In this document: in pieces, positions 16,301-64,000 of the stretch | Position numbering within the stretch: position 1 is the stretch's first letter | How the letters are laid out: every line of letters begins with the position of its first letter | Assembly: GCA_030704615.1 (NCBI GenBank) | Contig: CM060731.1 | Coordinates: 81,964,001 to 82,028,000, forward strand | Direction of reading: 5' to 3' | DNA from: Takakia lepidozioides | Taxonomy: Eukaryota; Plantae; Bryophyta | DNA length: 64,000 nucleotides | Translations under genes and position numbers: made by a program | The notes under the pieces: generated by a model | Database searches by the model: none | The model's input: only the letters and a program-made list of their open reading frames with translations | What the model was told of the DNA's origin: nothing

Positions 16301-18301
16301 GCAACAGCAAGAGATGAAATAAAACACAAGCAGAGAGACGTGCCATCAAACCAGGAGTCCCAATACCTGCAACTTGAGAATTTTCATGTTGTGGATGGCT
16401 TCAGTGGAGGCCCGTAACCGCGCATCTTGGGCAGCCATCAGATGGGTCTGACATCTCTGTTGAGCTTTTGCCATTGGAGTGTTTATAGACATGGCAATGA
16501 GTAAGACTCCAAGGGCTGCTAGGGTGGCCCAACCCACAGCATATGCCAGAATAACCAGGGCAATGATGACCTGAACTCCAATGGCCCATACAAAATGCAC
16601 CCAAAAGGAGAACTCGCCAATCCGATAAGCATCAACTGTCATATAATTGACAATCTCACCAGACGCATGTTTTTGCCTTCCTGTAACATGGCAACTCCTT
16701 ACAAAGTTAAGACAAGCTGGGAATAAGACAGATTGGAGGGGAAAGGGACATAGCAGAAGAAGAAATAAAAAGACAATAAATCCTTGAGGACTCTCTCAAA
16801 TCTAAAATAGAGCAAGACTTGGATATGATGACAGAGATCCACACCCACCCCCACCCCCCCAAAATAATGTGCTCTGTTAACATTGATGGTCAATGGCAAT
16901 ATGGTATTGGGGAGGGGATGGAGGATAGTCAAATACTTAACCATTTCACCCTACTTCCCTTATAAGATTTTTCTTCTAAGAAGAAAACTAGGGAACAGGT
17001 TCACCAAGTATGAACTGCAGGCAGTTGCAGTAAATTACAAAGCTTACAGTGCTGACCTATCCCAGGTGGGGTTGAAGTCCAAAAGCAGTATACTAACTGG
17101 TGCAGTCAACCTGACCTGTGCTAGACAGTCGTAGCTCTTTCTGGTAGATGGCCGCAATGAGGGCTGATCGGATCTGCACACCCACTCTCCGGCTACCAAA
17201 GTACCCCTGCCGCTGTGAGAGAGATTCTAGCATTTTGGCCAAAAATAGTCCAGCCACCAGCACATAGCCCTCATACTTGAATGTCTGCTTCCCCCCTGTA
17301 AAATCTATGAAAAGCTTAAGGACGATGGGACCCATTGATAGTGTAGCAGATTTGACGAGTGCAAAGACACCATTTAGAGCAAGTGGCTGCCAGAAGCATG
17401 ATGACAGCGCCCAGAAGATTGAGAGGGGTCGGTCAGGATCCTGTGAGGCTTGATTAGCCAAGGCCCGAATAAATTTGTTGTAAGCTGTCTCAGCTTCATC
17501 CTCCTTGCCGAGACGTGGCATATCTGCTTGATTCAAAGGTCTACTGGAACCCAGTAATAGAAGGGGGTTAAGCCACAAAAAGCTCATGCGGCTCAAGAAA
17601 CCAGCAGTCGCAAAGGGTGTAACATTTCTACCATCTTTTTTATTCCCACTCAAGGGGTCCCTCCCCTTGAGGAGAGGGTCGCGTAAGTTGTCAATTTCTA
17701 TGACAGGATTATCTTCTCCCTTCACAGCGCAATAGAGTAGTAGACAACACACCGGCCAGGAAGCCATCCCAAGGACAGTTGAAACTGAAAGTCGGTGCTT
17801 ATTGATTGAATCTAACAGCGCTGCAATGGCAGCAAATGTTCCTAATATGAATGTATAAACACACCAACATCGGCTGAATATTGCAAACGGAGGTCTTCGC
17901 CTGAGTCTTAGTGTAAGAGCGAGACTTATCCAAGCAATCCCTTGCATTAGAAAGAAAACCCATTCTTGCATTGGGTAAATTACTCCCTCCCTGCTCCAAC
18001 CATTGGCTATCTGCCATGTGGCAACTCCTAGATTCGCCAGACCCACTAAAGCAGTGAAGCATATGACAACCCCAGCGAAGATTGACCCCCTTCGCACATA
18101 TCTCTGAGGCTCTGACCTAAAGGCATTCCAGCTGAAAGTAAGAAACAGAAGCAGATCAATGCCGGAAATCATGGCATGTTGGGAGCATGGTGCAAGTACT
18201 ACAGCCCCGAACCAAGCCATAGTGTCTGTTACCTCCCCCATAGGTGCGCATCTTTCTGTGCAAGTACTGTCTATGGAGGTCACTGGGTCGCCACAAAACA
18301 T
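7387..18301 (-). CDS. ABCC: ABC transporter subfamily C (MRP), ABCC10/MRP14-like; coding exons 18301-17116, 16680-16367, 15889-15626, 15505-15230, 14203-13883, 12593-12507, 12250-11624, 10709-10545, 10099-9805, 9441-9227, 8979-8674, 8217-8154, 7967-7728, 7502-7387 (the start may lie on a short upstream exon)
   Basis: TMD0-TMD1-NBD1-TMD2-NBD2 layout. Linker [25 protein letters not shown]1: Walker A GEVGSGKS, signature [28 protein letters not shown]2: [34 protein letters not shown]-terminus [16 protein letters not shown] boundaries found for every intron. Confidence 0.95.
8330..8346 (-). mobile_element. Ultra-short (CATTT)n-tailed retroposon 3' end with 7-bp TSD
   Basis: TGTGAGA at 8323-8329 and 8347-8353 flanks AATGAAATGGTACTTTA, the family 3' end. 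Confidence 0.55.
12872..12892 (-). mobile_element. 21-bp 5'-truncated LINE insertion with 15-bp TSD
   Basis: ACTGACGAGGAAAGA at 12857-12871 and 12893-12907. The insert shares TGTACTCATAAGACGTT with the 3' end of the LINE fragment (14478-14494). Confidence 0.7.
13291..13313 (-). mobile_element. Ultra-short (CATTT)n-tailed retroposon insertion with 13-bp TSD
   Basis: AGAGTGTGTGAGA at 13278-13290 and 13314-13326 flanks AAAGAAATGAAATGAAATGGCCG. Confidence 0.6.
13509..13797 (-). repeat. Two adjacent (CATTT)n-tailed retroposon ends; 13581-13797 is duplicated at 19296-19512
   Basis: Shared consensus GAAATGAAATGAAATGGTRCTTTATAMCGTCCGYGGRAA..CTC....AGCTTATGGGACAA. The 217-bp copy differs from 19296-19512 at 2 positions. 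Confidence 0.75.
14472..15178 (-). mobile_element. 5'-truncated non-LTR retrotransposon (LINE) 3' fragment encoding the C-terminal CCHC (zf-RVT-like) region, in ABCC intron 4
   Basis: Open frame with RAGSLPLN...[20 protein letters not shown]...FLEDIWKTR. 10-bp TSD AGCTGCAAGT at 14462-14471 and 15179-15188. Confidence 0.85.
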
Positions 18302-18741
18302 TGCCCATGACTCTACACATCCACAGACACAAGAAAGCCAAAAGATTAATTCAGAGGAACCAAGTTTTCTTCTAATGTAAAATCTCCTAGTTGGGGTTAC
18401 CTCCACATCCTTCAAAATGGTTCGACTAAAATTAAACTGAGTTATTGACAAACACATAGCTGCAGACACCCTTCCCTGTCCACAATAATGCTGGGCACAA
18501 AGAACAAAATCAGGGATCATACATAGAGAGATCCGTACCTGAGTTGGGTCTGCCTAATGCTCAAGTAGCACAAATACATATTTCTAAACAGATAAAAAAT
18601 TTGGTATATCTAGGTGTTTAGAGACAAGCTAGAAAGCATCCATGATCCAGGCAATTCGAAAATGATAGAATTGAAGAGGTAGCATGCAGAGACACAATAC
18701 AGATCCTGTTGCACTCCACGAAAAACACAGTAAGCAGATTG

Positions 18742-24740: not shown

Positions 24741-25000
24741 GTTTGCCTTAGTGGAAGTGGTGTTGGCAGCTTTCATTACGTCCTTCAGTGTCCCGCCAAA
24801 CTGTGCCAGAAGCCCTTCCCAAAAGGCTGCTAGCATGGGAGACATCTATTGGTCTGACGGAACCTTTTGGAAGTCCTCGGGCTCCGTCCCCTCAAATTCC
24901 TCCCGCTCTCGAGCGACCTCACTATCAGAAGCATAAATTGCCTCGTCCAGTGGCCACTCCGGTGACACGTTGCTCCCACCGGGCTCACCAGGATCATCAT
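24741..25000 (-). pseudogene. gag: gag 5' remnant of a chromovirus (same family as 40799-41200), interrupted by the DNMT element
   Basis: DDPGEPGG...AFWEGLLAQFGGTLKDVMKAAN matches ORF 40799. It continues at 37761-37850. Confidence 0.85.
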
Positions 25001-25190
25001 TGTCGTGCGCATACATATCGCTACACAACTACATCGCTGTCCAAAACCACACAACACATGTGCACACCACACACTAGTATACCACTAGTCTACCACTAGT
25101 CCAGCCACTAGTCCAACCACTAGGCTACAACTAGTCAGTCACTAGGCTGCCACTACGCTGCCCACTATGGCAGTCACTAGTCCACACAAT
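25001..25190 (-). repeat. Repeat B2 (190 bp; 3' terminus of the element)
   Basis: Identical to 25518-25707. Rich in CCACTAG(T) motifs. Ends in CA on the minus strand. Confidence 0.95.
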
Positions 25191-25515
25191 GATAAAGAAG
25201 AAGAATACAAGCACAAGCTCATGCGAGCTCACAAAGCTGAAGCATAAACTCATGCATATATAACCTCATCACTCAAATACAAGTCAAGCCAAGTGCACCC
25301 CACGCCATGGGAATCCACACTACGGCGCCATAGCTAGGCGCGGTGAGGCTCAACTCGAGAAAGATGAGCCTCCCGCGCTTGCCGTGAAGATAACCACTCC
25401 AGGGCCTAAATCTGCCTTGACCCCTGGATTGACACTTGGGCCAATCCCAAATGTCAATATGTAAAAGCTAGCTATTTCCTAGCTAGTTTCACACTAGTGG
25501 TAAAATAACTTGACA
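25191..25515 (-). repeat. Repeat A2 (325 bp)
   Basis: Matches 37434-37760 apart from 1 substitution and 2 homopolymer indels. Confidence 0.95.
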
Positions 25516-25517
25516 GC

Positions 25518-25707
25518 TGTCGTGCGCATACATATCGCTACACAACTACATCGCTGTCCAAAACCACACAACACATGTGCACACCACACACTAGTATACC
25601 ACTAGTCTACCACTAGTCCAGCCACTAGTCCAACCACTAGGCTACAACTAGTCAGTCACTAGGCTGCCACTACGCTGCCCACTATGGCAGTCACTAGTCC
25701 ACACAAT
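25518..25707 (-). repeat. Repeat B1 (190 bp), preceded by a PPT-like AGGGGGCG
   Basis: Identical to 25001-25190. Purine tract at 25708-25715 on the minus strand. Confidence 0.95.
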
Positions 25708-25964
25708 CGCCCCCTAGCTGGTGCTTAGGTCCCTCTAAGTCCAGGTAGCCACAAGATGTGATAGTGACCATAGCCTCACTAAGTCCTCCACCACTATCCC
25801 TACTACACTCAAACTCGATAGATCAAGAGGCCGGGTGCAAGAGTTGCCCCATCGTTAGTCGCCGTCTTGCAACCTGTGAACTTGAGCTTGGGATCTCATG
25901 TATTGACTCCTATGAGCTTGGCCTCCCATGTCTTGTTAGCTGCCTCCAGTCATGTCCACTGCCA

Positions 25965-28900
25965 CTATCCCAAGCAGTGTGGACACAACCAATCTCCGTC
26001 AGGAACCTTCTCAAGAGGTGGTGTCAAGCATCCCATATGCCAACCCTTGAGCACCGATCACACACCAGCATGGTGGCTGCCCCTTTGGCAGACCCACAGA
26101 GCATGCACCTCAAACCTGCAGGTACCACTGCCAAGTTTGGGTCAACTCTGCCATCGACATTGGGAAGGTGACATGGCGCACAATTACGCACATGGTCTTT
26201 CCAAGTCATGCCATCCCGACCCTCTAAGATCAGGACCCCTGAGGGCAACACCTCTCGAACCCTCAGAATAACACGCCCTGCAGTAACATCCAGAGTCGTA
26301 GGAGCAGTCTGCTGCAAATAAACATAGTCACCAGGGCTAAACCTCCGAACCCCAGGACGATATCCTCCACCACGTATAGTGGCATACCTCAACGTATCAC
26401 GGTGCTGTGCAATGGCAAGGTTCTCAAAAGCCATGGGCATGACTTTCTTGAACAACTCTGCACGCTGATCACATGCACGTACCCACACGTCCGGATCGTC
26501 AAGGTTAAGGACTTGAGCAGTGTCCCTACGAATGGCTGCAGGCAAATCCGGCTCTCGGCCAAAGAGAAGGAAATATGGTGAGAAGGAGGCAAGTGATGCT
26601 TGTTTGCTGAACCTGTAGCCCATGGCTAACCAAGGAACCTGAAGATCCCAATCTCCTAGGTGTCCCTTCTGCAAGCCATACTTGCGCAAACCCCTCTTCA
26701 CCGTCTGAACAACTCTCTCTGCTAAGCCATCGGCCTCAGGATGATCCCGAGAAGTGGTGCGGTGGTCTATCAAGGCTTTATCACACAAAGCCTGAAACTC
26801 CCCAAGAACTCTCTCCCTTGGTCCGTGAGTACCTCAGCTGGAGCACCAAATCGGCTAAGCACACGATCCAAGAATGCATACGCAGCCCCCTCACTAGCCT
26901 TGTCAGGCAATGGAACCAACTCAATCCACTTGGAGAAGTGCTCCACCATCACCAACACATATCTGTGGTGGCGCATAGTCAGTGGCAACGGTCCTGCGAA
27001 GTCAAGACTCCATCTGTAGCCCAATCCCATGATAGGTAAAGGATGCAACTGTGGTGTAGGGGCGTTGAATGAAGCACGCACCCTGTCACACACCATGCAC
27101 CTAGCCACAAACTGTTGCACCTCTGTATGCATACCACGCCACCAATACTGCCCCTGCAGTAAACTGTGAGTGCGTCGCACTCCAAAATGCCCCAACTCCT
27201 CATGGGCATGCCGCACTAACCGTGCACGCTGTGTGGGGTGAGGCACAATCCTCACCCGACCACCCTCCCACACTCGAAGTAGGTGTATCCCCTCCCACTT
27301 GAACCTCTTGGCTCGTTGCAGGATCCGATCCCTCTCCCTGGCAGTCACAATGGCTGCCGTGTCTCCCGTGCGGAGGTAGTCCAACACAGCCGAATCCTCA
27401 TGTATATCTCTGGCACCACCTAGCTCATCACTAGCCTCAGGGTCCTCAGACACTCCGTCTACAGTCATCCCTGTTGTAGGTCCAATCTGACCTCCCGATG
27501 CCAAGATACACAAAAATGCAGATGCGTGCCATCCCGGCACCATCTCCTCGTCCGTCTCACCATGCCACCGAGCTCCAGTGTCATCCTGCTGGCTCATGCA
27601 TGGATTGCGACTCAATCCATCCGCATCCCGATTGACCAAACCCGGTCGATGCACAACCTGAAAGTCATACTCCTGGAGTATAAGTGCCCACCGTGCAAGC
27701 TTCCCCGTAAGCTTGTCTGACTCCATCAACCACTTGAGTGGCTGGTGATCCGTGACAAGGGTGAAAAGATTGCCGTATAGATAGCACCTGAAGTGTGCCA
27801 CGGCCCACACTGCAGCTAAGCACTCTCCCTCATATGAGCTGTACTTAGCCTCTGCAGCGTTGTTCGAGCGGCTAGCGTAAGCCACTACGAACTCTCTTCC
27901 CTCATCATCCACCTGTGTGAGCACCGCTCCAAGCCCCAGCATGCTCCAATCCGTATGCAGCTGAAAGGGACGCCCCTGATAGGTCGTCTCAAGATAGGCG
28001 CCGAGGTCAACCTCGCCTTGAGCTCTTGAAAAGCTCGTTCCTGCTCATCTTCCCACTGCCACTCCTGGTCCACCTTGGTCAGCTTGGTTAGAGCCTTTGC
28101 AATGGTACTAAATCCCTTGACAAACCGTCTATAATAGTTTGCCAACCCCATGAAAGCTCGAACTCGGCTCACATCCGTGGGGCGTGGAATTTGTGCAATG
28201 GCCTCTACCTTAGTCTGCTGTACCCCCAATCCTCCAGGATATATCATGTGACCCAGATACTCAATCTGGTTGTGGAAAAACTTGCACTTCCCGGATGCAA
28301 CTTCAATCCGTGCGCTCTCAAGCGCTCCAATACCACCTGAAGGTGTCTCTCATGCTCCTCCATCGTAACACTAAAGATGATGATGTCATCTATGTAGCAC
28401 CGAGCAAAGTCCACCCCTGCTAGAATCCTATCCATGACTCTCTGAAACTCTGCAGGAGCATTCTTAAGCCCAAATGGTAAGAACCGCCACTGATATAGGC
28501 AATCCTTGCCGTGCTCATTGATCCCCCAGAATGCCGTCTTCTGCTTGTCCGCCTCCTTGATTGGCAACTGGTGATATCCGGATCGTAAATCCAAAGTGCT
28601 AAAGGCCTTAGCATGCCCGATGGCATCAAAGATCTCCTCTGGTGTTGGCATGGCATACTTATCGGACTTGGTCTGACGATTTACAGGCCGGTAATCACCG
28701 CACATACGTCTCTCCGTCCAATTGCCATAGACATCCTTCTTGGCTGGCATCACTGTGGCTGAAGCATACTCTCCACCAGAGAGCTCCACCAAACCTGCCT
28801 CCCAGAGATCTTGAGTCCTCATCTGAATCAAAGACCTCTCCATGTCACTGTATCTATAGGGTCTCCGAAAGATTGGCGTGTCAGTGGCCAACTCAATACG

Positions 28901-29040
28901 GATCTCTTGACCCTTCAGTGCTCCCAAGTCCTTCAAACTGAAGGCAAAAGCAATTCCTGTAAGCCCTCAGGAACCGCCGTATACGTCGTCTCTCTCCTCC
29001 GGTGACAATGGGTCCAATGTCAGGCTCCCAATTGTCCTCC
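25965..29040 (-). CDS. pol: pol region: RT - RNase H - DDE integrase - C-terminal PHD finger (broken by single-base frameshifts as assembled)
   Basis: RT: RMCGDYRPVN, FSTLDLRSGYHQL, LPFGLKNAPAEFQR, YIDD. RNase H: LHTDWS, YEGECLAAVWAVAHFRCYL, VTDHQPL, DADGLSR. Integrase: HEELGH...CMVC, SLDFAG, LTDQGREF, GLAER. PHD: CMLC...CDRC(SRGW)HMGC...WLCPHC, stop at 25965-25967. Confidence 0.93.
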
Positions 29041-29399
29041 GTAACTACAACCTTAAGTCCAGTGGGCTTAGAGGTAGAGGACGCGTCCCGTGGTTGCTAT
29101 GCTGCAACCTCTTGAGCAGTACTCCCTCCTGCTCAGTCAATGACAAGGCATCATCCTGCCCCATCATCTCATCCTTGAGGACCTCCTCAACTCGAGAAGA
29201 ATCCCCAACCTCATCCATCACAGCCGCCTTGGCTGCCAACTCCCTCTGAACCTCGAGCACCTCCCACGTGTGCCATGGATGCATGCACCCCGTGGTCCTC
29301 ATATGCTCGCCCCCACTCACTGCCTGTACCGTCTCGGTAGGCAGAGAGACCATTGAGGGAAGTGTATTCCGCACTCTGCGTTGCTCAGCTAGAGCCAAG

Positions 29400-30345
29400 C
29401 TGATAATCCAGGTCAAGCAATTGAGATCCATTGCTTGCCCCAACACTTGACGACGTGATGCCTCAGAAAGAGACGACACCGCCGTGGTACCAGTGGTAAA
29501 ACCCATTGCCCGCTCACGCTCGTCAGCATTAGGCTCCACTAACTGCTGCAACTGAGCATCCCACAGGAGGCCAGGTCCACTATCCCGGAAAGCATGCGAT
29601 CCTGGGAAGCTGAGCAGTGTAGGTAATGCTGCTCGTGGTTGACCCACCTTGTTGACCACTGCCAAAGGCGAACGGTCATCGTGTCTCACACGTTGAGACT
29701 GCCTCCCTGTGTCCAGAATGTTATCCACTGTGAGATGTGCTGGCCGCTGCACCCCATCAAATGCACGCTTGAGCAGTGCGGGTGGCATCATGTTAGTCCA
29801 CCATAGCCGTGGACGATGAGCCCGTGACCCCACTGTAGCTGCATCTAGCAACACTGCTGACCCAAGCCACGACCGGACTTGATGCACACTGGCCATCACC
29901 CTGGCCCGAGAATCGCCCATCAGTGGCACATTCTCCAAGATGTATGCTGGAGATACAGCTTGATGAAGCTGCAAGTGGCGCAAAACCCGCACCATCTCCC
30001 AAAACAGACCCGACCTCGAGTCTCGCAATCCATTGCCATGCCCGGCTGATGAATGCCCTTGGCAGGGCCAACCTGCCACTACCAGATCAATGGAGCCAAC
30101 CCGCTCCAAATCCTGCGCCCCCAGCAACGAAATGTCTGCTGGCAAGGCCTGCTGATATCCACGAATTGCAGACACCGACAACAACTCAGGGTACCGCTGC
30201 ACCAACTGAGCAACATGGCGAAGTGAAACGCGTCGTGCAGTCTCATCCCTCTCCACATACAGGTAACGCCGAACTCGTACACCTGCCTGTAACACAGCAG
30301 CCAATCCGGTGCTGATCCCGCCAAACAAGTCCAGAAGACAAATGC
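29400..30345 (-). CDS. C5 cytosine DNA methyltransferase domain (DNMT3-like, non-permuted) within ORF 29045-31429
   Basis: Motif I LLDLFGGISTG; II YVERD; IV DLVVAGWPCQG (catalytic Cys); V SGLFWE; VI ILENV; VIII DAATVGSRAHRPRLWWTN; IX ERERAMGF; X RRQVLGQAM. The frame is uninterrupted. Confidence 0.95.
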
Positions 30346-30739
30346 CTTCATCCGGAGACTGCCACACAATAGGTGTGGTGTCCAATGGAGACAATTGAGG
30401 TGGTCCTGGTGCAATCCCCACACTCTCCTCCTCTCCTGACGGTACAAAAGCCTCCACCCAGGCTTGTTGCACCCGTCGATCAGCATCCCGCTGCAAATCC
30501 TTGCTCGTGCCCCACAATGGAGTCTGAGCAACCATGGTAGGCAACTCCGCCATACCATACATGTCATCCTGCTCTCCCGGAGGTGGTACATCCTCTGAAT
30601 GAGCATTGCCCTCAAGCAACTCTCTAGGCCAACTCACTGCCGCTGTGAATGCTGCTAGTGTCGGCATCTTGCCTCGCTGGGCAACCGCAACTCCTCCTAT
30701 GAACGTCACAGGGAGCTGCACACGCCGGCCCTCCCCTGA

Positions 30740-31080
30740 CTGCCATGCAGGCCTATAGGAAGCTGACTCCTCCCAAAAATCCAGGGTGAAGCCCATGGGG
30801 TACAACACTGCCCCACCAACCAGGACATCGTATGAGACTGCGTCTGTCACAATGGCCTTGGCTCGCATCACTGAGCCATCTGTAGGGTGATCCGGCCGTA
30901 GTCTGATAGCCAACTCATGCCGTGTCATGCCCCGAGCCTGCTCCGATCCTCCCAGAGACGTCTGTATCTGGAAAGGACAAGGCTCCATATCCGCCTCCGT
31001 GAGGCCCAAGCCTGCAATAGCAGCTCTGCCCAGCATCAGTGGCTGAGCTCCCGAGTCCAACAAGACTCGCAGTGGCCGGT
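30740..31080 (-). CDS. Retroviral-type aspartic protease domain, in the same ORF as and upstream of the DNMT
   Basis: VLLDSGAQPL active site and YDVLVGG C-terminal motif. Confidence 0.85.
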
Positions 31081-31419
31081 ACCTCTTGCCTGCCGGTCCA
31101 CTCAAACAGAAAATGCCATCCTGGTTGTCTAACATGACAACTCCAGGTGTCACCATGGCGCGCTCAATGGCTGGCCTAGCTGGCAGCTCCATCAACCTGG
31201 CAGCTGCAGCTTGCCATGGCGCCGCCGTGGCAGTCTTGACCCTCAAATCCGAGGATCCCTCCGGCACTACACCTCCCACTATCTCCGCAGAAGATGAAGT
31301 AACCTCCCCACTCTCACAGAGTGTAGCTGCCAGCCTGAACACCTCAGCTGGTCTTATCCCCGGCGTCGCAATCATGGTAGCCGAGAACAATGGAGCCTGG
31401 CACACAGATGTGGCCGCTC

Positions 31420-33267
31420 CTAGCAGCACACTAGCTGCCGTAGCCTTGGCAACACTAGGTAGTGGTGCTGCCCGTGTAGCTCTCCCAATGGCATAGTAAC
31501 CTCCGCCTCGGTAATAGTCGGGCGAGAACTAGGTGCCATGGATGGCGTCGACACTGTCTCCGCCAATGTGAATGACTGAGGAAGCCTAGCCTGACGGCTT
31601 GCCTCCCCACGCTGTGGATCCAACTCCACCTCTGCACCTCGTGGCTCAGGAACTCGTGCTGCTCCTCGAGTCACGGCTGCAGCAGACTCCACCTGCACTA
31701 GTGGTAGTGCTGCTCCACACATGAATCCCATGCCTCCCATATCTCCTCCCTCAGGAGCAGGAGGTGGACCATCCGGCCTTAGAGCCGGTACCACCTGAGC
31801 TGTAGCCATGGCAGCGAGCCTCTGCTCTAGCTGCTGAAGCCGGTTGGCCATGCCTTGGTCAACACCCTGACCTCCGCGTCCTTGGCCACGTTGAGCTTGC
31901 CCTTGGCCTGCACCTCGTGGCTGGCCACCTCGTCCTCTCTGGGCTGCTCCACCTCGCCCCCGGCCACCATTGTTCCCTTGGAACTGGCCTGGGCGCAACT
32001 CAGGATGCAAACCATAACACTGGGCCTCTCCATGCCCGTGCTTGCCACAATGCCCACACTGCAACTGTGCAGGCTGTGCATGTGCCGACCCTTTGCCTCC
32101 CTCTGGGCAATCCTTCTTGACATGGGGTCCTCCACATGTCCAGCACACCACATCCGCCCGTTGTTGGCCAGCAAATGAAGGGAGAGACCCCTGCATCTGA
32201 GGTCCTCTCTGCCCTTCCCTGAGCTTCACCTGAGCCCCCTTGTTGCCTTGAGCACGTTGAGGTAGTGGTTGGCTAGGAGCACCACTACCCCGTGGTGTCT
32301 CCTTAGCAAATCCCACCATGACCACTCGTTCCTCCACCATGTTGAGCTCTATCCGCTCTGCCAGCAAAAACACATTTGCTAAGGTGGGTTGGGCCGCTTG
32401 TAGGAGAGTTGCATCCCGCACCCTTCTCCTCAGCTCCTTGTCCAATATCCCATACCAGAATTGGACTGCCTGAGCTTCCGTAACCCCTTGGGTTACATTT
32501 ATCAAGCGCCTCATGCGAGTGAAAGCCTCCCTCAAGCTCTCGGTCGGCTTCCGTTGGAACTCTTGCAAGCTCCGCAACTTCTCTGTCCTCACCCCTTGGT
32601 AGTTCCCTCTCAACTCTTCGAAGAACTCCACAACAGGGTTGAAGGCAGGCACGGGTGCTAGTGCTGGTGCGGTAGTGGCTTGGGTGGACGTCGTAGCTAC
32701 TGTACCACCAGTCCCACTGCTACTTGCTGAAGCTGCCGGTGCAGCGGCAGGTGTAGCCACTGCCCTCGTGGCTCTAGTGCCCCTAGTGATGGAGACATAG
32801 TCGGGTGACCAGTACATCCTCCACTCCTCGATCTCAACCTCATGCCCCCGCCTGAACTCATGGTAATCATCCATAGGCGGCCCCTCAAGGTGCTGAAACA
32901 GCCCTTTCCATGCCATGAACGGCGTAAATAGTTGTGGATTGCGCATTTGCTGCAAATCACACCAACTATCAAACTCTTGGATAAAATCATCCAACTCAAT
33001 GGTGCCCACCGCCCCAGAGTACCTTCGTGGCCCCTTGGTAGCTCCATACATCTCCTCCATTGTGTCCCACAACAATGGCAAAGAAACAACTTGCACCGCC
33101 GGTATGAGCCCTCCTGATTCACAATCCGAATCAGAACCTTCCGTGGAAGACACAGGAGGTGAAGGTGGCCTAAACCGCACACCTCGTCTCGTGTACCCAC
33201 TAGTATCGCTAGTGCTCGAACCGGCACTGTCCCCAGCAACTAGTGGCACCTCCGTGTTGACACTCAA
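31420..33267 (-). CDS. gag: Gag with two CCHC zinc knuckles (first in-frame ATG at 33060)
   Basis: LDDFIQEFDSW, FQRKPTESLREAFTRM (MHR-like), CWTCGGPHVKKDC and CGHCGKHGHGEAQC, followed by an RGG-rich region. Confidence 0.88.
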   Translation of the reverse strand: MSVNTEVPLVAGDSAGSSTSDTSGYTRRGVRFRPPSPPVSSTEGSDSDCESGGLIPAVQVVSLPLLWDTMEEMYGATKGPRRYSGAVGTIELDDFIQEFDSWCDLQQMRNPQLFTPFMAWKGLFQHLEGPPMDDYHEFRRGHEVEIEEWRMYWSPDYVSITRGTRATRAVATPAAAPAASASSSGTGGTVATTSTQATTAPALAPVPAFNPVVEFFEELRGNYQGVRTEKLRSLQEFQRKPTESLREAFTRMRRLINVTQGVTEAQAVQFWYGILDKELRRRVRDATLLQAAQPTLANVFLLAERIELNMVEERVVMVGFAKETPRGSGAPSQPLPQRAQGNKGAQVKLREGQRGPQMQGSLPSFAGQQRADVVCWTCGGPHVKKDCPEGGKGSAHAQPAQLQCGHCGKHGHGEAQCYGLHPELRPGQFQGNNGGRGRGGAAQRGRGGQPRGAGQGQAQRGQGRGGQGVDQGMANRLQQLEQRLAAMATAQVVPALRPDGPPPAPEGGDMGGMGFMCGAALPLVQVESAAAVTRGAARVPEPRGAEVELDPQRGEASRQARLPQSFTLAETVSTPSMAPSSRPTITEAEVTMPLGELHGQHHYLVLPRLRQLVCC

Positions 33268-33539
33268 CCGGTCATGAACATGTCCCTAACCCCCTCTCCA
33301 CAAGGTAACCGGGTAGAGAACCTGTTGCGGCTTATGGTTTGGAATACTAAGTTCCTAACATAGCCTACACCTGAACTTGCATGACCATGGGAATATCATG
33401 AAGATACTCCTCAAACCGCCCTCCACGAGCTTCAAAATTCGGCCTTCCAGACCACATGCCAGTCCTTAGTCCACCAGTGCCTCCACGAGTCAGCACAGGC
33501 CATCCACAGGTCAACACGGGCCACCACAGACCAGCACAG

Positions 33540-35900
33540 GCCCACACAGCTCACTGGTCACAGCCGTCACAGTCCCACAGGCCACTGGGCACAGCCTGTC
33601 ACAGCCCCTCACAGCGTCACAGCCCAAAGGCCTCAGGCACGGCCTGTCACAGCCCCTCACAGCCCGTCACAGCCCCAAAGGCCTCAGCACGGCCTGTCAC
33701 AGCCCCTCACAGCCCGTCACAGCCTCAAAGGCCTCAGGCACGGCCTGTCACAGCCCCTCACAGCCCTCACAGCCCAAAGGCCTCAGGCACGGCCTGTCAC
33801 AGCCCTCACAGCCCGTCACAGATTCCAAAGGCCATGGGCACGGCCTGTCACAGCCCCTCACAGCCGTCACAGCCCCAAGGCTCAGGCACGGCGTCACAGC
33901 CCCTCACAGCCGTCACAGCCCCAAGGCGATGGCACGCCTGTCACAGCTCCTCACAGCCGTCCAGCTCACAGGGCACAGGCACAGCCGTCACAGCCCATCA
34001 CAGCCCCAAAGGCCTCAGGCACGGCCTGTCACAGCCCCTCACGCCGTCACAGCCCCAAAGGCCTCAGGCACGGCCTGTCACAGCCCCTCACAGCCCATCA
34101 CAGCCCCAAAGGCCATGGGCACGGCCTGTCACAGCCCCTCACAGCCCGTCACAGCCCCAAAGGCCTCAGGCACGGCCTGTCACAGCCCCTCACAGCCAGA
34201 CAGCCCAAAGGCCATGGGCACGACCTGTCACAGCTCCTCACAGCCCATCACAACCTCACAGGCCACAGGGCACAGCCCATCACAGCCCATTACAGCTGTC
34301 ACAGCTCACAGCCATCACAGCCCGTCACAGCCTCAAAGGCCTCAGGCACGGCCTGTCACAGCCCTCACAGCCCTCACAGCCCAAAGGCTCAGGCACGGCC
34401 TGTCACAGCCCCTCACAGCCCGTCACAGCCCCAAAGGCCCAGGCACGCCTGTCACAGCCCTCACAGCCCGTCACAGCCCCAAAGGCCATGGGCACGGCCT
34501 GTCACAGCCCCTCACAGCCCGTCACAGCCCCAAAGCCTCAGCACGGCCTGTCACAGCCTCACAGCCCTCACAGCCCCAAAGGCCTCAGGCACGGCTGTCA
34601 CAGCCCTCACAGCCGTCACAGCCCCAAAGGCCATGGGCACAGCCTGTCACAGCCCGCCACAACCCCACAGGCCTCAGGGCACAGCCTGTCACAGCCCCGC
34701 ACAGCCCGTCACAGCCCAAAGGCATGGGCACAGCCTGTCACAGCTGACACAGCCAGTCACAGCCACACAGGGCACAGGCACAGCCTGTCACAGCCATCAC
34801 AGCCCGTCACAGCCTCAAAGGCCTCAGGCACGGCCTGTCACAGCCCCTCAAGACCCTAACAGCCCGTCACAGCCCCAAAGGGCCAGGGCACGCCTGTCAC
34901 AGCCCTCACAGGCCCGTCACAGCCCCAAAGGCCCAGGCACGGCCTGTCACAGCCCCTCACAGCCCGTCACAGCCCAAAGGCCATGGGCACGACCTCAGCC
35001 CCTCACAGCCCGTCACACCTCAAGGCCTCAGGCACGGCCTGTCACAGCCCCTCACAGCCCCTCACAGCCCCAAAGGCCATGGGCACGGCCTGTCACAGCT
35101 CTCACAGCCGTCACAGCCTCACAGGGCACATGGCAAGCCTGTCACAGCCCATCAAGCCCATCACAGCCCGTCACAGCCTCAAAGGCCTCAGGCAGGCCTG
35201 TCACAGCCCCTCACAGCCCCTTCCAACGCTCAAGGCCTCAGGCACGGCCTTCACAGCCCCTCACAGCCCGTCACAGCCCCAAAGGCCAGGGGCACGGCCT
35301 GTCAAGCCATCACAGCCCGTCACAGCCCCAAAGGCATGGGCACAGCCTGTCACAGCCCCTCACAGCCCATCAAGCCTCAAGGCCTCAGGCACGGCCTATC
35401 ACAGCCCCTCACAGCCGTCACAGCCTCAAAGGCCTCAGGCACGGCCTGTCACAGCCCCTCACAGCCTGTCACAGCCCCAAAGGCAATGGGCACAGCCTGT
35501 CACAGCCGCACAAGCCCCAAGGCCTCAGGGCCAGCCGTCACAGCCCCGACAGCCCGTCACAGCCCCAAAGGCCACTGGGCACAGCTGTCACAGCCTGACA
35601 CAGCCCGTCACAGCCCCACAGGGCACAGGGCACAGCCTGTCACAGCCATCACAGCCCACTCACAGCCGCACAGCCCCACAGGCCAGAGGGCACAGCTGTC
35701 ACAGCCCGTCAACAGCCGTCACAGTTCCACAGGGCACAGGGCACAGCCTACAGCCCCACAGCCTGTCACAGCTTGCCACAGCCCATCACAGCCCGTCACA
35801 GCCCCACAGGGCACAGGGCACAGCCTGTCACAGCCCCTCACAGCCCCTCACAGCTCCTCATAGCCCGTCACAGCTTGCCACAGCCTGTTACAGCCCCACA
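33540..35900. repeat. About 2.4-kb minisatellite in the element leader; unit of about 50 bp (GGCCTCAGGCACGGCCTGTCACAGCCCCTCACAGCCCGTCACAGCCCCAAA) built from 10-bp TCACAGCCC subunits
   Basis: Read directly; dozens of variant units. Confidence 0.95.
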
Positions 35901-36329
35901 CATGGCCGCTCTGGCAGTTTAGCCATTTCTCCAAGGGGTTTAGCCACGCCAAGCTAGGGTTTGTGTCTCTTGGACTCTAGGCTTCTTTCCACCGAGCTAT
36001 GGTGGCTGTGAGGAAATCAGCAAGGTATCCTTGCTCTTTCGGCTCCCACACACCACCATAGTAGCCCTAAGCCATGAGGTGGTTGCCACAAACCAAGCCT
36101 TCTTTCTCACTTAGCCTCCCCAAACACGCCACTAAACTCAATGGCAAACAACCAAGCCCTGCTGGTTCCCAGCCCTTGTGAGCACTCATTCAAGCATTCT
36201 CATTGGCCATAGCATCTGTCTTAGAGCCTATTCCAGCCCTCTACACCTGTTGCTTCAAGAGTTGCGCTCCCTTCAAGCTTGAAGTTGAAACCCCAACTCA
36301 CATAGGCCCTACAAGTGCTTTTCTTTCAC

Positions 36330-36760
36330 TCCAAGTGGAAACCAGCCCTAGACCTTCCGTTCTAGCTCTCTAAGGCTTGAAAACAAGAGCCTCAATGGGC
36401 TGAAGGCATGCTCCACACATGCCCCACTCTCACCATAAGAGAATCAGCTCCTTTGCTTCATTTCTTGCACCCACAAACCTGAAAATACAAGCTTCAGCAG
36501 GCTGAAAGCATGCTCTACATGCCCTACAGGGAAACCAGCCCCTTCCTTCCTTCCTTGCACTCCCACACCTAAAAGTGCAAGCCTTCACCAGGCTGATAGC
36601 ATGCTCCACACATACATTGCCCTCACATAAGGGAAGTCAGCCCTTCCCTCTTCCTTGCTTGCCCTCCAAGCTTGAAGATGGAAGCTTCAATGAGCTGAAT
36701 ACATGCTCCACACATGCAACCTCTTCACACAAGAGATATCAGCCCCCTATCTTGGCTCCT
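36330..36760. repeat. Degenerate tandem repeat with a period of about 95-100 bp (GCTGA..GCATGCTCCACACATGC...CAGCCC)
   Basis: The core recurs at about 36399, 36501, 36591 and 36693. Confidence 0.65.
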
Positions 36761-37433
36761 TGGCTCCTTGATGCTCTCTAAGACAAGACTAAGCACTCCA
36801 CAGCCTTTGCCAAGCTCCTAAAACCCTAAGGCTTACATTTCCAGCCACAAGACACTTCTCTTGTGGTGCAAGAGCTCTTCTTCCAAGCTCTGAAACCCTA
36901 GGTGCACATTCCATGGCCTTGCCGCACCTCTTAGCTCCTGTTCCAGCCCTGCTCTTGCCATGACAAGAGCCCTCTCAATGCTGAAGCTCGAGATTGAAAC
37001 CCAATCTCACCATACTCCACAAAGTGCACTGATTTGCCCCAAGCAAAATCAGCCCTTTCGCTTGGTCTTGCAATCCTTCACACAATGAAAGCTCGCATTC
37101 CCAAGTCCAGTTCTCAGCTTTGCCACCAAAGCCACTATAACCTGCTCTTGACTGGTCCTCTTCCCAATCGTGCTTGCTCATGCATGTACACAATCTGAAA
37201 CCATCAAGGTGCTCTGGAATTACCTGCAGCATGGTGCTTTCATCTCTGAAGCTGAAGATCGAATGCCAAGGTCTACCACCTCGTAACCCACATCGCCTCC
37301 GCTTCTAACAACCAAGAGCTCCACGGTGCTCCTTGCATAACAACTTGGTTTCTCTCATTCTCAAGCAAAAACCACAAGTGCTACAACTAACTCGTATCTG
37401 GCACTCACAGATACGAGCTGATCTTTCTCGAGT

Positions 37434-37760
37434 GATAAAGAAGAAGAATACAAGCACAAGCTCATGCGAGCTCACAAAGCTGAAGCATAAACTCATGCAT
37501 ATATAACCTCATCACTCAAATACAAGTCAAGCCAAGTGCACCCCACGCCATGGGGAATCCACACTACGGCGCCATAGCTAGGCGCGGTGAGGCTCAACTC
37601 GAGAAAGATGAGCCTCCCGCGCTTGCCGTGAAGATAACCACTCCAGGGCCTAAATCTGCCTTGACCCCTGGATTGACACTTGGGCCAATCCCAAATGTCA
37701 ATATGTAAAAGATAGCTATTTCCTAGCTAGTTTCACACTAGTGGTAAAAATAACTTGACA
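37434..37760 (-). repeat. Repeat A1 (5' terminus of the element; starts TGTCAAG)
   Basis: About 99% identical to A2. Abuts the TSD and is not followed by a B repeat. Confidence 0.95.
37499..37506 (-). promoter_or_regulatory. Putative TATA box of the DNMT element
   Basis: TTATATAT on the minus strand about 65 bp before the end of A1, in a U3-like position. Confidence 0.45.
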
Positions 37761-37890
37761 TCATCTTTCAGGCCGTTCCGCTTTCGTGTTGTCTTGCTAG
37801 ACCCTATGATAAGGCCAATCTCAAGAACGATCGCAGACTGAACTCCAAGGTCTGATACCAAGTATCGCGCACCTCCCTTCGGCCCAGTTA
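37761..37890 (-). mobile_element. Host chromovirus remnant: LTR end, tRNA-iMet PBS and gag start
   Basis: Minus-strand GAGGTGCGCGATA-CT-TGGTATCAGA matches 40731-40755. Confidence 0.85.
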
Positions 37891-38029: not shown

Positions 38030-38960
38030 CACGGTGGCGGTGGCAAATACATTTTGAAAATTAAATGACACGGTGGCGATCGTTTTGTTTTTCGAAATTA
38101 AAAAAGAAATAGCGACCACCGTATAGGCGCTCGCTTCAATTTTTATTTTTTTTTAAACAAGATTGGCGGTCGCACTGGCGGACGCTTTATTTTTCGAAAT
38201 GAAAAAAGAAATATCGACCACCATATTGGCAGTCGCTTCAATTTATTTTTAAACAAAAGCAAGATTAACGCATTGGCGGTCGCCTAATGTTTTTTTAAAA
38301 ACAAGCGACTGCCGTATTGGCGGTCGCACAATTTTGCAAATATATACAAAACAAGCGACCGCCATATGGCGGTCGGATAATTTCAAATAAAAATAAAAAA
38401 ACAAGCGACCGCCATTTGGCGGTCACTTAATTTCAAAAATATATAGAAAAACAAGCGACCACCATATGGCAGTCAGTATATTTTTATGACATAGAAAAAT
38501 AAAAGCGACCGCCACACCGGTGGTCGCTTATTTTAAAATAATATAATATTTGCGACCGCCAAACTGGCGGTCGCTTAATTTAATAATATATTAAAATAAA
38601 AGCGACCACCAGCCTGACCGTCGCTAAAACTTGAAAATATAAAGATTAAAAGTGATCGCCTTACTGGCGGTCGCGTTTTTTTAAAGATATTAAGAATAAA
38701 AGCGACCACCATATTGGCGGTCGCTTTATTTAAATATATAAACAAATGAAGCGACCGCCATACCGGCGGTCGCATTTATTTTGAATTAAAAAAAATAGCG
38801 ACCGCCATAATGGGGCGGTCGCTTAAATTTAAAAATATACAAAATAGAAGTGACCACAATATTGCACAAAATGAAAAGAAATAAAAGCGACCGCAATAGT
38901 GGCGGTCGTTTTTTTCCATAAAAAATAAAAAATAGTGACCGCAATATTAGCGGTCGCTTA
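38030..38960. repeat. Array of about 18 palindromes (AAGCGACCGCC-N4-6-GGCGGTCGCTT) at about 50-bp period with A/T-tract spacers; probably a DNA-transposon subterminal region
   Basis: Units at about 38111, 38213, 38303, 38353, 38403, 38453, 38503, 38551, 38599, 38650, 38700, 38749, 38797, 38885 and 38933. Confidence 0.85.
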
Positions 38961-39394
38961 ATTTCAAAATTATAACAAATATGGTTGTATATGGTTGTAT
39001 AGTTTTCGGGGGGGGGGCTATTGGTTCATCATTTATTCATTTCACTTTCATTTCACTTTCATCCTTTCTGGATCATATATAAGGGAGCAAGGTCACCAAG
39101 CTTTTCACTTCTTTTGGCGCAAACACTTGAGGTTGCTTAGGATGTTCTCTTCCATTGAACGAGAGTGTAGCCCAAGAGGAGGGTGCACACCTTTTGCCAT
39201 TGTGGCTTCCATCAAAGCTACTTCAGCAGATTGTGCATAAGCTCAACACTACAACCCACATCGACCCACTTGGGTTGCTGACAGGTGTAGAAGTGTTGGG
39301 CTATCACATTGCACTCTATATTCACAACACGTTCATTTATAGGCGACTGTTTTTTGTTGCTTACATCACTAGGGCCCAGGGGAGTGGATATTGG

Positions 39395-40013: not shown

Positions 40014-43000
40014 ATGTGTCGCGGCCCTTCGCCTTGAGGGCAGGGGATCGGGACACAAAAGGGGCTGCCCCTGTGGTGGGGGTAGTGGCAACAATAGATA
40101 CGGGGGCTGAAGCACCTTTGAATGCCCAAGGCACTCAAGGAGGCAGAGGCGCTCACTAGGTGGAACCCCGCACACGGGGTTGCGGTGGGGGTGGTTCCAC
40201 GAGGGATGGTGGTAGCTTAGTGGGATTTAGTGGGGGTGGCATAGGACTCACCATGGGGCGGAGACCTTTGTGGTGGGAATCGTGGGGAGTCTTGGGACTC
40301 ATCACGGTCCAATGGGGCCGTGGTGGGTAGGCCAAGACTCACCGCGACTCACCACCGGGAATGGAGGGTCTTCGTGGTGGTTCGTCATAAAAGGACAGTG
40401 TTGTTTGTGAAACCCCCGCGGACAGTCACAGAAGTATATATAGGAGTAGTAAGTAACTGAGAACGGTGCAAGCCCATTTGTGACCAAAAACTAGTGAGTA
40501 AGCGTGCGAGCCGGAAAACGACCAAGGTGTGGGGAGCTGTTCTGGACTGCCAACAACCAAAGGGAATTTCCACTAGGCCCAAATTGAGAGAGGGTCTTGT
40601 GGAAGAGCAAAAGGGGACCGTTATATCCCGGTGAGCAGCCGAAGCTTCGAGTTGGCCCGGCGGCCAGTTTGGGAGTTAGGCGCGCAGATCAAAGCGAATA
40701 ACTATAACTTAAAGGGGAGCTTACCGAAGTGAGGTGCGCGACACTTGGTATCAGAGCTTAGAGTTTAGTACGCGATCGTCCTTGAGATCGGCCTCATCAT
40801 GGGGTCGGGCAAGCCAAAGCGAAAGCGGAACGGCCCGAAAGATGATGATCCTGGTGAACCCGGTGGAGGCGACATGTCACCGAAGAGGCAATTTGAAGAG
40901 ACGATTCATGCTTTTGAAAGCGAGGCCACTCAAGAACGGGAGGAATCTGGGGAGTTAGAGCTCGAGGACTTCCCGGAGGCTCCGGCAGACCAACAGATGC
41001 CTCCCATGCCAGCAGCCTTTTGGGAAGGGTTGTTGGCGCAGTTTGGCGGGACGTTGAAAGACGTGTTGAGGGCGGCTAATGTCATTTCCACGAAGGCAAA
41101 GTTTAAGGTGAAGCCTAAGGAACCCGACACCTTCGAGGGCATCCAAAATCGGAAGGCACTCAACACGTGGCTCTTGGAGCTAAAGCAGTACTTCCGCGCG
41201 CCTTCAAGCATCATGGACTCCCGAAGGATATTGTCTCGGACTGCGATCCAAAGTTTAGAAGTAAATTTTGGAGGGCACATTTGGAAGAAGATGGGGACGA
41301 GACTCAAGATGAGTACGGCCTTCCGACCTACGACGGACGGCCAAACGGAAAGAGTGAATTCCATGGTGAAGCAGATCTTGCGGAATTATGTATTGGCAGA
41401 CCATCAAGACTGGGTTGGGGGTGGAAGGTGGAACATTTGGAAATGCCGGGGGGGGGGGCAGAGTTTGTTATAATAACACAAAACACGCTGCCAACGGGAA
41501 GGGGAGTTTCCTCTTTCGTATTGGTCAGGGAAAAGCACCTCCGGTGCCGACGACAAGTTGGGCCGCCCAAGGATGTTGAGGAACCGGCCGTAGTAGTTAG
41601 CAGCGGTGCTGGAAGAACACGAGCGTTTGTTGGAGCTTGCAAAATACAACATTGCCAAGCCAGGAAGGGGAAACGTATGAACGGCAGACGAATCAGAGCG
41701 GAAGGAAGAGGGAAGCTAAGTTTGAGGCGGGTACGGAGGTCTGGTTGAACATTAAGAATTTTCGACTACCTTCGGAAGCGAGTCCGAAGTTCGTACCTCC
41801 GTATGCGGGGCCCTTTCGCATACGGAAGGTTATGAATGAGGAGTGTGTATGAATGGAGCTGACGGCAAACAAAAACAAGGTGCATCGGGTAATTCACGTA
41901 TCTCCCCTTTTGCAGCCTTACTTCAAAGATGAAGCGCGTCCGAATCGGCATTAAATGTTGCGTCCCGCCACCTGTGACTGTTGGATCATGAAAAATGAAC
42001 CGGGAGAGTACGATGGTGGAGTGGTGGAGGCAGGAGTGCTTAAGTCGAGGAGGTTCAAGAATCGAGAAAGGAGTAAGGATCTCGTGAAATGGGAAGGGCT
42101 CTATCATGGAGGCAACTTGGGTGCGTGCCTCAGAGAAATGGGGAAACGCATCCGAGGAGGCAGTTGAAGCTTTCGAAGGGCGACCTCAAAAGCGGGGAAG
42201 AAGCGTTGATGGGGCATCAAACCTTGGATCGTGGGGAGGAAAATGCATGCTTAGGCCGGCTTGCTTAGCTCAAGGAGGAATCGATTTGCAAAAAACTTAT
42301 GTTGTACAAATTTTGTTATAAATGAAATGGTTCCAAATGTTGTGTGTCTTCTTATTTTGTTTGGAATGGTGATGCATTGGTTATGGTTGGCTAGTGTGTA
42401 GAATGCATGCTAGCTTACAAAAATGGGAGAGGTAAATTGGGATTAATCGTGTGTTGCGCAGTGCCGAAATCGGGTGACTCCCATCCAAGGGGCAAGGAAA
42501 CTTGCGCCCTTCTTTGGGGAGTTCACGTGCTAGTGCGCACCTGCGCGCGTGCGCGTAGTATAACTGCGCTACCGAGGGGGTTGCCTTGTAGTGCAGGCTA
42601 ACACGAAAGCTACGTGGTTCCGTTCACGTACTATAATCATGTAGCCTCGGGACGAAAAGTCGTAGTGTGGCTTCGGCGTGTTCCCGTACCTCAGGCCAGC
42701 ATTCCAAGGCGGACCCAATTGTAGTGATTTGGGCGCACGGTCAGTTCAAGGTTATCTTCCTAGTCAAAAAAAGGGTTCAAGGTGAACCATTGCTCAAGGT
42801 GATGCCAAAAGCGACATCATGAGTGGTCGCAAACAATGTTGTTGCAGTAAGGTGATTTGATCCTCGGGGAGGATCGTTCCTTGGCCTGAAGTGGGCCAAG
42901 AAGAGTGCACTGGGTGGAGCTTGAGAGCTCCACCTTGGCCGGGGACTTAGAAGAAGCCGGCCGCCGAACTAGCTAGTGGAGAGCTGATCAAGTGGGGGGG

Positions 43001-43658
43001 GTTTGGGTTCTTTGCCATGGGACGCCATGGTACGGAAACAAACTCCTTGATGTGGGACGCCACAACTTGGATGTTCGTTTCTACAAAATGGACAAGTCGA
43101 TGAGGACATCGACTCCCTGTGGGTAGGGGTGTGTGTCGGGGCCCTTCACCATGAGGGCAGGGGGTCGAGACACAAAAGGGGCTGCCTTTGTGATGGGGGC
43201 AGTGACAAAAATAGATACGGGGGCTGAAGCACCCTTGAGTGCCCCAAGGCACTCAAGGAGGCGGAGGCGCTTCACTAGGTGGAACCCCGCACACCGGGTT
43301 GCGGTGGGGGTGGTTCCACGAGGGGGGTGGTTTAGCTTAGTGGGACTTCTTAGTGGGGGTGGCATAGGACTCACCATGGGCGAAGACCTTTGTGGTGGGA
43401 GTCGTGGGGAGTTTTGGGACTCATCACGGTCCAATGGTGCCGTGGTGGGTGGGCCAAGACTCACCGCGACTCACCACCGAGAATGGAGGGTCTTCGTGGT
43501 GGTCTGCCATAAAAGGACGGTGTTGTTTGTGAAACCCCTGCGGACAGTCACAAAAGTATATATATGGAGTAGTAACCCCGAGGAGAACGGTTGCAAGCCC
43601 GTTGGTTACCAAAAACTAGTGAGTAAGCGTGCGAGCCGGAAAGCGACCAAGGTGTGGG

Positions 43659-47067: not shown

Positions 47068-47349
47068 AGCTGTTCCGGACTGCCAACAACCAAAGGGAAT
47101 TTCCACTAGGCCCAAATTGAGATAGGGTCTTGTGGAGGAGCAAAGGGGGTGACGATACTGAGTCTAAGAGGGAATCATCTGCCTCCGATAGTGAAGATAG
47201 ATCCGATGATGCTCCCGAAAATGCGTATGACCCGTTTACGTTCACAGAAGATAATGCTTACATCCAACCGACCTTTGACGACCTTCTTGAGGAAGTACGT
47301 ATCGCAGATGAAGGTGAAGCTGCAATTGTGTTTATGCACTTTGCCTAGT

Positions 47350-63993: not shown

Positions 63994-64000
63994 GTATTTT

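Follow-up and report, generated by a model that had tools for sequence, protein, structure and literature searches.

The window, a stretch of 64,000 nucleotides from the genome of Takakia lepidozioides (GCA_030704615.1, contig CM060731.1, positions 81,964,001 to 82,028,000), contains a whole Ty3 retrotransposon of 12,760 bp (25001-37760, minus strand) with a DNMT3-like C5 cytosine methyltransferase (MTase) domain. We hold with moderate confidence that the element belongs to a Ty3 lineage with members among green algae, mosses, and liverworts, that its MTase is an ancient, selected domain of DNMT3 type that is predicted to be active, and that this protein would be made at the level of Gag and would methylate newly made cDNA. 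Elements of the Gypsy-Dnmt3 kind are already known; their spread in bryophytes, the conserved stop codon, and the palindromic split repeats were not found in print.

The methyltransferase domain and its element

The MTase domain is 326 aa long (29378-30355, minus strand) and free of stops. It is in frame with the protease in an ORF of 827 aa without a stop codon (29045-31528, minus), and we confirm the first-pass annotation on this point: both the protease motif LLDSGA and MTase motifs I-X are in that ORF. The motifs occur in canonical, non-permuted order from 30331 to 29429 (minus): I (DLFGG, 30331), II (YVERD, 30259), IV (GWPCQG, 30073), V (SGLFW, 30013), VI (LENV, 29938), VIII (RAHRPRLWW, 29824), IX (ERERAMGF, 29521), and X (RRQVLGQAM, 29455). 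The catalytic Cys98 and Glu141 are present, as are Arg181 and Arg183.

By sequence similarity and a predicted structure, rather than by a tree, the domain appears nearer to DNMT3 than to DRM, DNMT1/MET1/CMT, DNMT2, or bacterial enzymes. The HMM search proposed at the outset gave a match to PF00145 (Pfam, E 3e-13), and an atlas search with the MTase confirmed PF00145 only. Among sequences of solved structures DNMT3A ranks first (1e-11), followed by DNMT3B, DRM2 (1e-4), and HhaI. A profile of 65 sequences finds DNMT3A at 2e-24, compared with 1e-12 to 1e-8 for DRM-type enzymes and 6e-8 for HhaI. The AlphaFold model has a mean pLDDT of 97, and its best Foldseek matches are DNMT3A/3B. In a comparison with the folds of 48,161 chains DNMT3B is at the top (Z 29.3, rmsd 2.6, 274 aligned) and DNMT3A scores Z 28.1; lower scores go to M.MpeI (Z 25.7), HhaI (22.9), DNMT2 (21-23), DNMT1 (19.6), ZMET2 (18.5), and MET1 (18.0). 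Motif order, profile search, and fold ranking all agree with the original call of a DNMT3-like enzyme and not a permuted DRM, and the strings that it quoted for the DNMT3 wording of motifs VIII-X are present in the DNMT3A alignment.

The domain has motif order and fold in common with the catalytic domain of DNMT3A/3B (Z 28-29, rmsd 2.4-2.6). It differs from DNMT3A/3B and from plant host DNMT3 in its low structural identity (about 22%) and in having neither PWWP/ADD domains nor introns. The target-recognition loop is also unlike that of DNMT3, so a CG preference cannot be assumed.

The element has the termini TGTC...GACA and the layout A1-internal-B1-GC-A2-B2, and is flanked by a 4-bp target-site duplication (37761-37764 on the 5′ side and 24997-25000 on the 3′ side, minus). 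It was inserted into an older Ty3 element, and the empty-site joint is seen in sequencing run X3. The 5′ untranslated part includes a tandem array (33558-35895, strand unspecified) of 42 copies of a C/A-rich unit of about 50 bp. The gag ORF (31420-33285, minus) has a weak match to PF03732 and, by eye, zinc-knuckle-like Cys/His motifs. It is followed by an aspartic protease (30719-31123, minus; LLDSGA at 31063-31046), relatives of which match PF13650, and then by the MTase. Downstream are reverse transcriptase (RT) with its connection (27888-28966, minus), RNase H (27667-27972, minus; PF17917, E 3e-36), and a DDE integrase with zinc finger, rve core, and C-terminal part (26108-27237, minus). 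A PHD finger (25975-26107, minus) ends pol, and in the relative L034 this finger matches PF00628 (E 3e-10). The distance from A1 to gag is shorter in moss-like relatives than in the window element, where the array occupies 2.3 kb.

The order Gag-PR-RT-RH-INT with a DDE integrase is that of Ty3/Gypsy, as are the TG...CA termini with a 4-bp duplication; the two complete direct LTRs of that group are replaced by the split layout. No chromodomain was found in the window element. The six coding ORFs scanned gave no match to a tyrosine recombinase, and the 5′ part has no minus-strand ORF of more than 109 aa. We rejected membership in DIRS/PAT/Ngaro, given the rve integrase and coding ORFs without a recombinase match.

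The coding frame is shifted near 31484 (gag/protease), 29127, 28946, 28289, 27972, 26799, and 26045; three of these breaks (28946, 28289, and 27972) fall in the RT part, one (26799) in the integrase, and the last interrupts the PHD finger. Many other family contigs differ in length at the first six breaks, and loose ends occur at the seventh. The breaks, about seven and all outside the MTase, are therefore private to the window copy or assembly errors. B1 and B2 are identical and A1 and A2 nearly so, which makes the insertion young. The first-pass annotation had described a young copy with an intact MTase; both points stand, whereas the element outside the MTase is broken.

The older Ty3 copy that hosts the element occupies 24742-25000 and 37761-37882. 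A second copy of this MTase-free family lies at about 40-47 kb (40015-47149), with gag, protease, RT, and RNase H in pieces; it contains repeated stretches and is 79-86% alike where shared with the older copy. To the right of the element is an AT-rich array (38084-38970) of units of about 50 bp with a short palindromic core, which may represent the subterminal repeats of a DNA transposon. The host genes in the window are intron-rich and of plant type. They include a glycosyltransferase family 92 gene (1503-3010, minus), a gene with a VARLMGL motif (DUF761-associated; 61784-64000, plus), and a multi-exon ABCC-type transporter gene (8000-18550, minus), an exon of which has its best named match in Ceratodon (46%, 346 bits), then Diphasiastrum (38%) and Marchantia paleacea (36%), a ranking that gives weak evidence of a moss host. 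An atlas search with a host gene yielded no result. An intron of the ABCC gene (near 14500-15150) contains a Cys/His-rich reading frame, presumably akin to a LINE tail.

Range, origin, and selection

The MTase has its closest relatives in retrotransposon proteins from Calypogeia and Marchantia (as much as 76% identical) and from Sphagnum (60%). Further named relatives are from Klebsormidium, Closterium, Monoraphidium, and Hariotina, and an additional 263 clusters (50% identity) score below 1e-30. Annotated relatives include Mp4g09160 and Mp8g17980 of Marchantia polymorpha (73-76% identical). Another Ty3 domain is present in the same protein in 199 of 259 homologues. The named hits include no vascular-plant members, which is weak evidence. 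A young copy in a land plant had at first seemed a rarity; relatives are instead common across bryophytes and not peculiar to one genome. On the Marchantia V chromosome, the Mp_Vg “genes” P0287-P0289 and P0292 share a 90% cluster with Mp4g09160 (Gag-PR-MTase).

The MTase occurs in two layouts: in one it follows the protease and precedes RT, and in the other (RH-MT-INT) it follows RNase H and precedes integrase. The clade with the latter layout includes P0004, P0010, P0304 (Hariotina), P0260 (Monoraphidium), and about 110 others, and is chlorophyte wherever named. The MTase has descended together with RT: trees of the two domains for 94 proteins that carry both share 24 of 38 well-supported RT splits (patristic r 0.69), with P0042 and P0262 breaking the agreement. 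These two proteins have very divergent MTases ahead of RT, and their RT nests within the RH-MT-INT clade; they possibly reflect a second move or a replacement of the MTase domain. In a quick tree of 60 rows, with SH-aLRT support only, the window element falls with Calypogeia, Marchantia, and Sphagnum into one group of 12 rows (SH-aLRT 100), and the RH-MT-INT layout makes up one side of a branch. The trees, which contained no host methyltransferase sequence, fit one old capture of the MTase, with the domain changing its place later. That the capture is ancient is suggested by the relatives found in Marchantia, Calypogeia, and Sphagnum, together with the sister architecture in chlorophytes. There is no sign of a single recent capture of the host's DNMT3, an origin that the first-pass annotation had considered: the nearest relatives are retrotransposon proteins, in trees from which host DNMT3 is absent.

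The evidence on copies comes from contigs of the sequencing runs and from metagenome loci, and adding up contig depth does not give a copy number. MTase bins are about as deep as those of RT in four DNA runs, which represent three samples (runs X1 and X3 are one sample, possibly the source of the window). In run X3, 14,030 contigs cover the MTase domain and have no common indel. The domain is therefore not missing from most copies. MTase contigs number two in X12 and none in X16 (both guessed to be RNA), and none in X8, counts that are silent on expression or absence.

The MTase is under purifying selection, as shown by variants within the host's own family and by divergence, so neutral evolution of the domain, an outcome foreseen at the start, is not what we found. 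Common variants in that family comprise 19 synonymous and 11 replacement changes, for a pN/pS of 0.21-0.28 (p 2e-5 to 6e-4); these are 30 of 35 rows, each reaching 15% in X3, five rows listed only for X12 having been dropped. In comparisons with metagenome copies, where dS is near saturation, MTase and RT have the same median dN/dS of 0.09, with 39 of 46 pairs unsaturated in the MTase and 8 of 39 in RT. The median identity to these copies is highest in RT (71%), followed by the MTase (67%), Gag (57%), and the protease (55%). We assessed conservation in 210 domains of at least 290 aa, drawn from 259 hits and the window and biased to intact ORFs. The catalytic Cys is present in 208, the Glu in all 210, and both Arg residues of motif VIII in 209. 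Other motif positions vary more: the motif I Phe is found in 162 of the 210 and the motif IV Pro in 118, with Glu replacing this Pro in 80.

The first-pass annotation named a retrotransposon-borne C5-MTase in Klebsormidium as a precedent, rightly so. KnitGypsy-Dnmt3 of Klebsormidium nitens has an intronless, non-permuted DNMT3-like domain in a Ty3/Gypsy polyprotein, with Ka/Ks <0.2 and, according to the legend of Fig. 4c, a “DIRS-like” repeat layout (de Mendoza 2018, PMC5890265). The window element shares the Ty3 domains, the purifying selection, and the DIRS-like repeat layout. The K. nitens protein KFL_009030040 has the order PR-MT-RT-RH-INT, and its MTase is 45% identical to that of the window over 260 aa. 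MTase and RT are in one open frame in this protein, unlike in the window sublineage; the window element also differs in its land-plant host, its very high copy number, and the stop between MTase and RT. The same study treats KnitGypsy-Dnmt3 as an acquisition of the K. nitens lineage, and its available text gives no mechanism for the repeats and names neither Marchantia nor Physcomitrella (PMC5890265). The phrase “streptophytes (Gypsy-DNMT3)” occurs in bioRxiv 10.64898/2026.05.21.726589, and “streptophytes” in PMC12344493, with land plants unnamed in the accessible portions of both. An opinion article (Morozov 2019) describes such elements as absent from land plants “such as tracheophytes”. A PHD-bearing Gypsy-7a appears in a preprint on Chlamydomonas v6. 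We found no account of a bryophyte or land-plant Gypsy-DNMT3, of split Gypsy repeats or a circle route, or of a stop between MTase and RT in the literature, where a mention in subscription papers, Repbase, figures, or supplements is possible.

The stop codon and the split repeats

The first-pass annotation placed the MTase in the polyprotein between protease and RT. The position is correct, but a conserved TAG separates the MTase from RT: in this lineage the domain is part of the Gag-protease frame, upstream of a stop that is likely leaky, instead of sharing an open frame with Pol. The sequence that likely directs readthrough from Gag-PR-MTase into RT-RH-IN is TAG-CAA-CCA (29091-29099, minus); the conserved form of the stop is UAG-CAR-YY(A/C). 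The window sequence is of the UAG-CARYYA type, which in plant viruses is known as the type I motif for readthrough (PMC5382211). The TAG itself is at 29099-29097, and the end of the ORF at 29045 is a by-product of the frame break near 29127.

In L034 a Gag-PR-MTase frame of 1369 aa is followed by one stop and then, in the same phase, by an RT-RH-IN-PHD frame of 1047 aa. The frames of L046, L035, L016, and L031 are laid out like those of L034. Most Marchantia and Calypogeia proteins stop 70-80 aa past the MTase, where “stop” labels mark the ends of records; P0002, labelled “open”, also ends 167 aa past the MTase. An alignment of the 48 spacers that are similar in length, out of 55, has 32 TAG, 15 TAA, and 1 GAG in one column, with CAACCC next in 46. 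The strict CARYYA form is found in 6 of the 55, including the window and the 52%-identical L034, L035, and L046 (in-frame TAG-CAR-YYA); the large moss-like family has CAACCC, the conservation of which (0.96) is barely above the spacer mean (0.93). Taken alone, conservation among these 48 close copies is of little weight, and the divergent relatives carry the argument. From this pattern we predict that the MTase is likely made at the level of Gag and RT-integrase by readthrough. No stop past the MTase was found in Klebsormidium, Closterium, or the RH-MT-INT clade, so Gag-level amounts of MTase would be inessential and the stop is not universal.

Repeat A1 (328 bp; 37433-37760, minus) differs from A2 (25191-25515, minus) by one substitution and two one-base indels. 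B1 (190 bp; 25518-25707, minus) is identical to B2 (25001-25190, minus), which forms the element's end. The B1/A2 junction is a palindrome, GACA-GC-TGTC (25512-25521, strand unspecified), and each half of it equals one end of the element. The junction sequence CACGACA-GC-TGTCA persists in L034 and L046, at identities as low as 52%, and split repeats are also present in L037, L039, L053, L056, L072, and L077. The 4-bp duplication is exact in six of eight two-ended loci and agrees in three of four letters in the other two (L072 and L077 are one insertion).

A primer-binding site, likely self-priming, adjoins A1 (37421-37433, minus), and 13 nt within A1 (37597-37609, minus) are complementary to it and likely serve as the self-primer. 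None of 1000 shuffles reaches 13, and other, different complementary pairs of at least 11 nt occur in 9 of 22 loci. These pairs suggest self-priming of the Tf1 type. A polypurine-tract-like stretch lies upstream of B1 (25708-25719, minus). In Tf1/Sushi and Tcn1, too, the primer site is reported to be complementary to 5′ RNA of the element itself (Neumann et al. 2019, PMC6317226). Compared with those elements, the window element has a PHD finger, an MTase, and split repeats, and no chromodomain was found.

At the A2/B2 join the primer-site boundary directly meets the base after the purine tract. This is what blunt joining of cDNA ends predicts, and we infer integration from a circle, which was likely opened by integrase at the internal palindrome. 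Foamy-virus integrase cleaves the junctions of 2-LTR circles (Delelis et al. 2005, PMC1180852), and is thus also a DDE integrase that cuts a palindromic junction in a circle. The foamy-virus cut is at the LTR-LTR end junction and restores normal LTRs (PMC1180852), whereas the cut proposed here would be at an inherited palindrome inside the repeat and would leave permuted ends. A circle with two junctions should be cut at either one. Among the 22 loci whose 5′ end is visible, none shows the product of cutting the other junction, a one-sidedness that counts against the circle route. Nine loci end directly past B1 (L014, L017, L024, L026, L027, L038, L063, L073, and L076), and the three with both ends visible (L017, L027, and L038) have 4-bp duplications, one of them mismatched. 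This short form could derive from a one-repeat circle or from recombination between B1 and B2.

The repeats of the form A1...B1-A2-B2 and an MTase in the polyprotein are also features of SymbioDIRS-Dnmt3 and of DAM-bearing DIRS/PAT/Ngaro elements (PMC5890265). Unlike DIRS elements, which use a tyrosine recombinase, the window element encodes a DDE integrase, and its ends are TG...CA with a duplication of 4 bp. We also considered and rejected Troyka, which has CG...CG termini, a 3-bp duplication, and animal hosts (Kojima 2025), compared with TGTC...GACA and 4 bp in the window. An initial view of Troyka as a three-repeat Gypsy proved wrong (Kojima 2025).

Proposed function and its meaning for bryophytes

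In the mechanism that we propose, most ribosomes would stop at the UAG past the MTase and make Gag-PR-MTase, and a minority would read through to RT-RNase H-integrase-PHD. The protease would release the MTase within the particle. Self-primed reverse transcription would give DNA with B-GC-A at both ends, and end joining would close it into a circle, creating the A/B junction. Integrase would cut the internal GACA-GC-TGTC, lose the two middle bases, and insert the DNA as A1...B1-GC-A2-B2. The MTase would mark the cDNA inside or near the particle before insertion, so that the new copy would arrive methylated. The idea of cDNA methylation was already proposed by de Mendoza 2018 (PMC5890265). The near-invariant catalytic Cys, Glu, and Arg residues and the purifying selection indicate that the MTase is likely active. 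The SymbioDIRS-Dnmt3 domains of Symbiodinium methylate CG de novo in yeast (PMC5890265), which by analogy likely counts for activity here also. Points against activity are the KnitGypsy-Dnmt3 domain, which gave no methylation in yeast in a test that its authors call inconclusive, and the weaker retention of the motif IV Pro and the motif I Phe. A more inclusive model is tentative and, taken as a whole, rather doubtful: a green-lineage Ty3 clade, abundant in mosses and in liverworts such as the model Marchantia, that no longer follows the standard linear route but self-primes, circularises, cuts an inherited palindrome with a DDE integrase, packages a DNMT3 in capsid-level amounts via a leaky stop, and uses cDNA methylation to steer the choice of junction or the host response.

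The MTase may instead act at or after insertion, on the integrated copy, its flanks, or older copies, for self-silencing or chromatin shaping and perhaps guided by the PHD finger. We consider this unlikely, although it is the strongest of the competing explanations. A PHD finger does end pol, and options of host benefit and of action at the insertion site were raised by de Mendoza 2018 (PMC5890265); the MTase, however, is encoded in the Gag frame, with the stop standing between it and both integrase and PHD. The element has a CpG observed/expected of 0.54 and the nearby MTase-free Ty3 one of 0.87, a comparison of one element with one that cannot separate self from host methylation, and host MET1/CMT/DNMT3 pathways could account for the loss. 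Less probable again is that methylation serves the circle route, by marking the junction or the cDNA body and so steering the integrase's choice of junction or blocking self-insertion. The case is purely circumstantial: the junction, which is kept among the divergent relatives, holds a CG and a CAG/CTG, just one of the two possible cut products is seen, and MTases recur with split repeats in DIRS (with DAM or DNMT3) and in KnitGypsy.

That the domain is kept for nucleic-acid binding or RNA methylation and not for DNA methylation seems slightly more improbable still. The Klebsormidium enzyme gave no methylation in yeast, a result that its authors call inconclusive, as DNMT3B also failed there (PMC5890265), and amounts at the level of Gag would suit a structural job. 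The near invariance of the catalytic Cys, Glu, and Arg speaks against such a role, as does a fold nearer to DNMT3 than to DNMT2. We give very little credence to a neutral passenger recently captured from a host DNMT3 gene. Only 7 of 51 full-length metagenome copies (from 80 loci) are stop-free, though old insertions decay in this way; the pN/pS and dN/dS values argue against a recent capture, as does the fact that the nearest relatives belong to retrotransposons, in two liverworts (76%), in Sphagnum, and in algae, and not to a host gene. Methylation of new cDNA by a Gag-level MTase is the explanation that we prefer.

The known carriers of transposon-borne DNA methyltransferases are algae and dinoflagellates, which have limited genetic tools. 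The relatives in Marchantia polymorpha allow MTase function to be studied in a plant for which CRISPR, methylomes, and a met1 mutant are available. The sequence yields predictions that can be tested, namely an MTase dose tied to Gag via readthrough and integration by a DDE integrase through a circle. Copies of the element could inflate DNMT3 counts in bryophyte annotations, and de-repressed copies could add methylation that is not of host origin.
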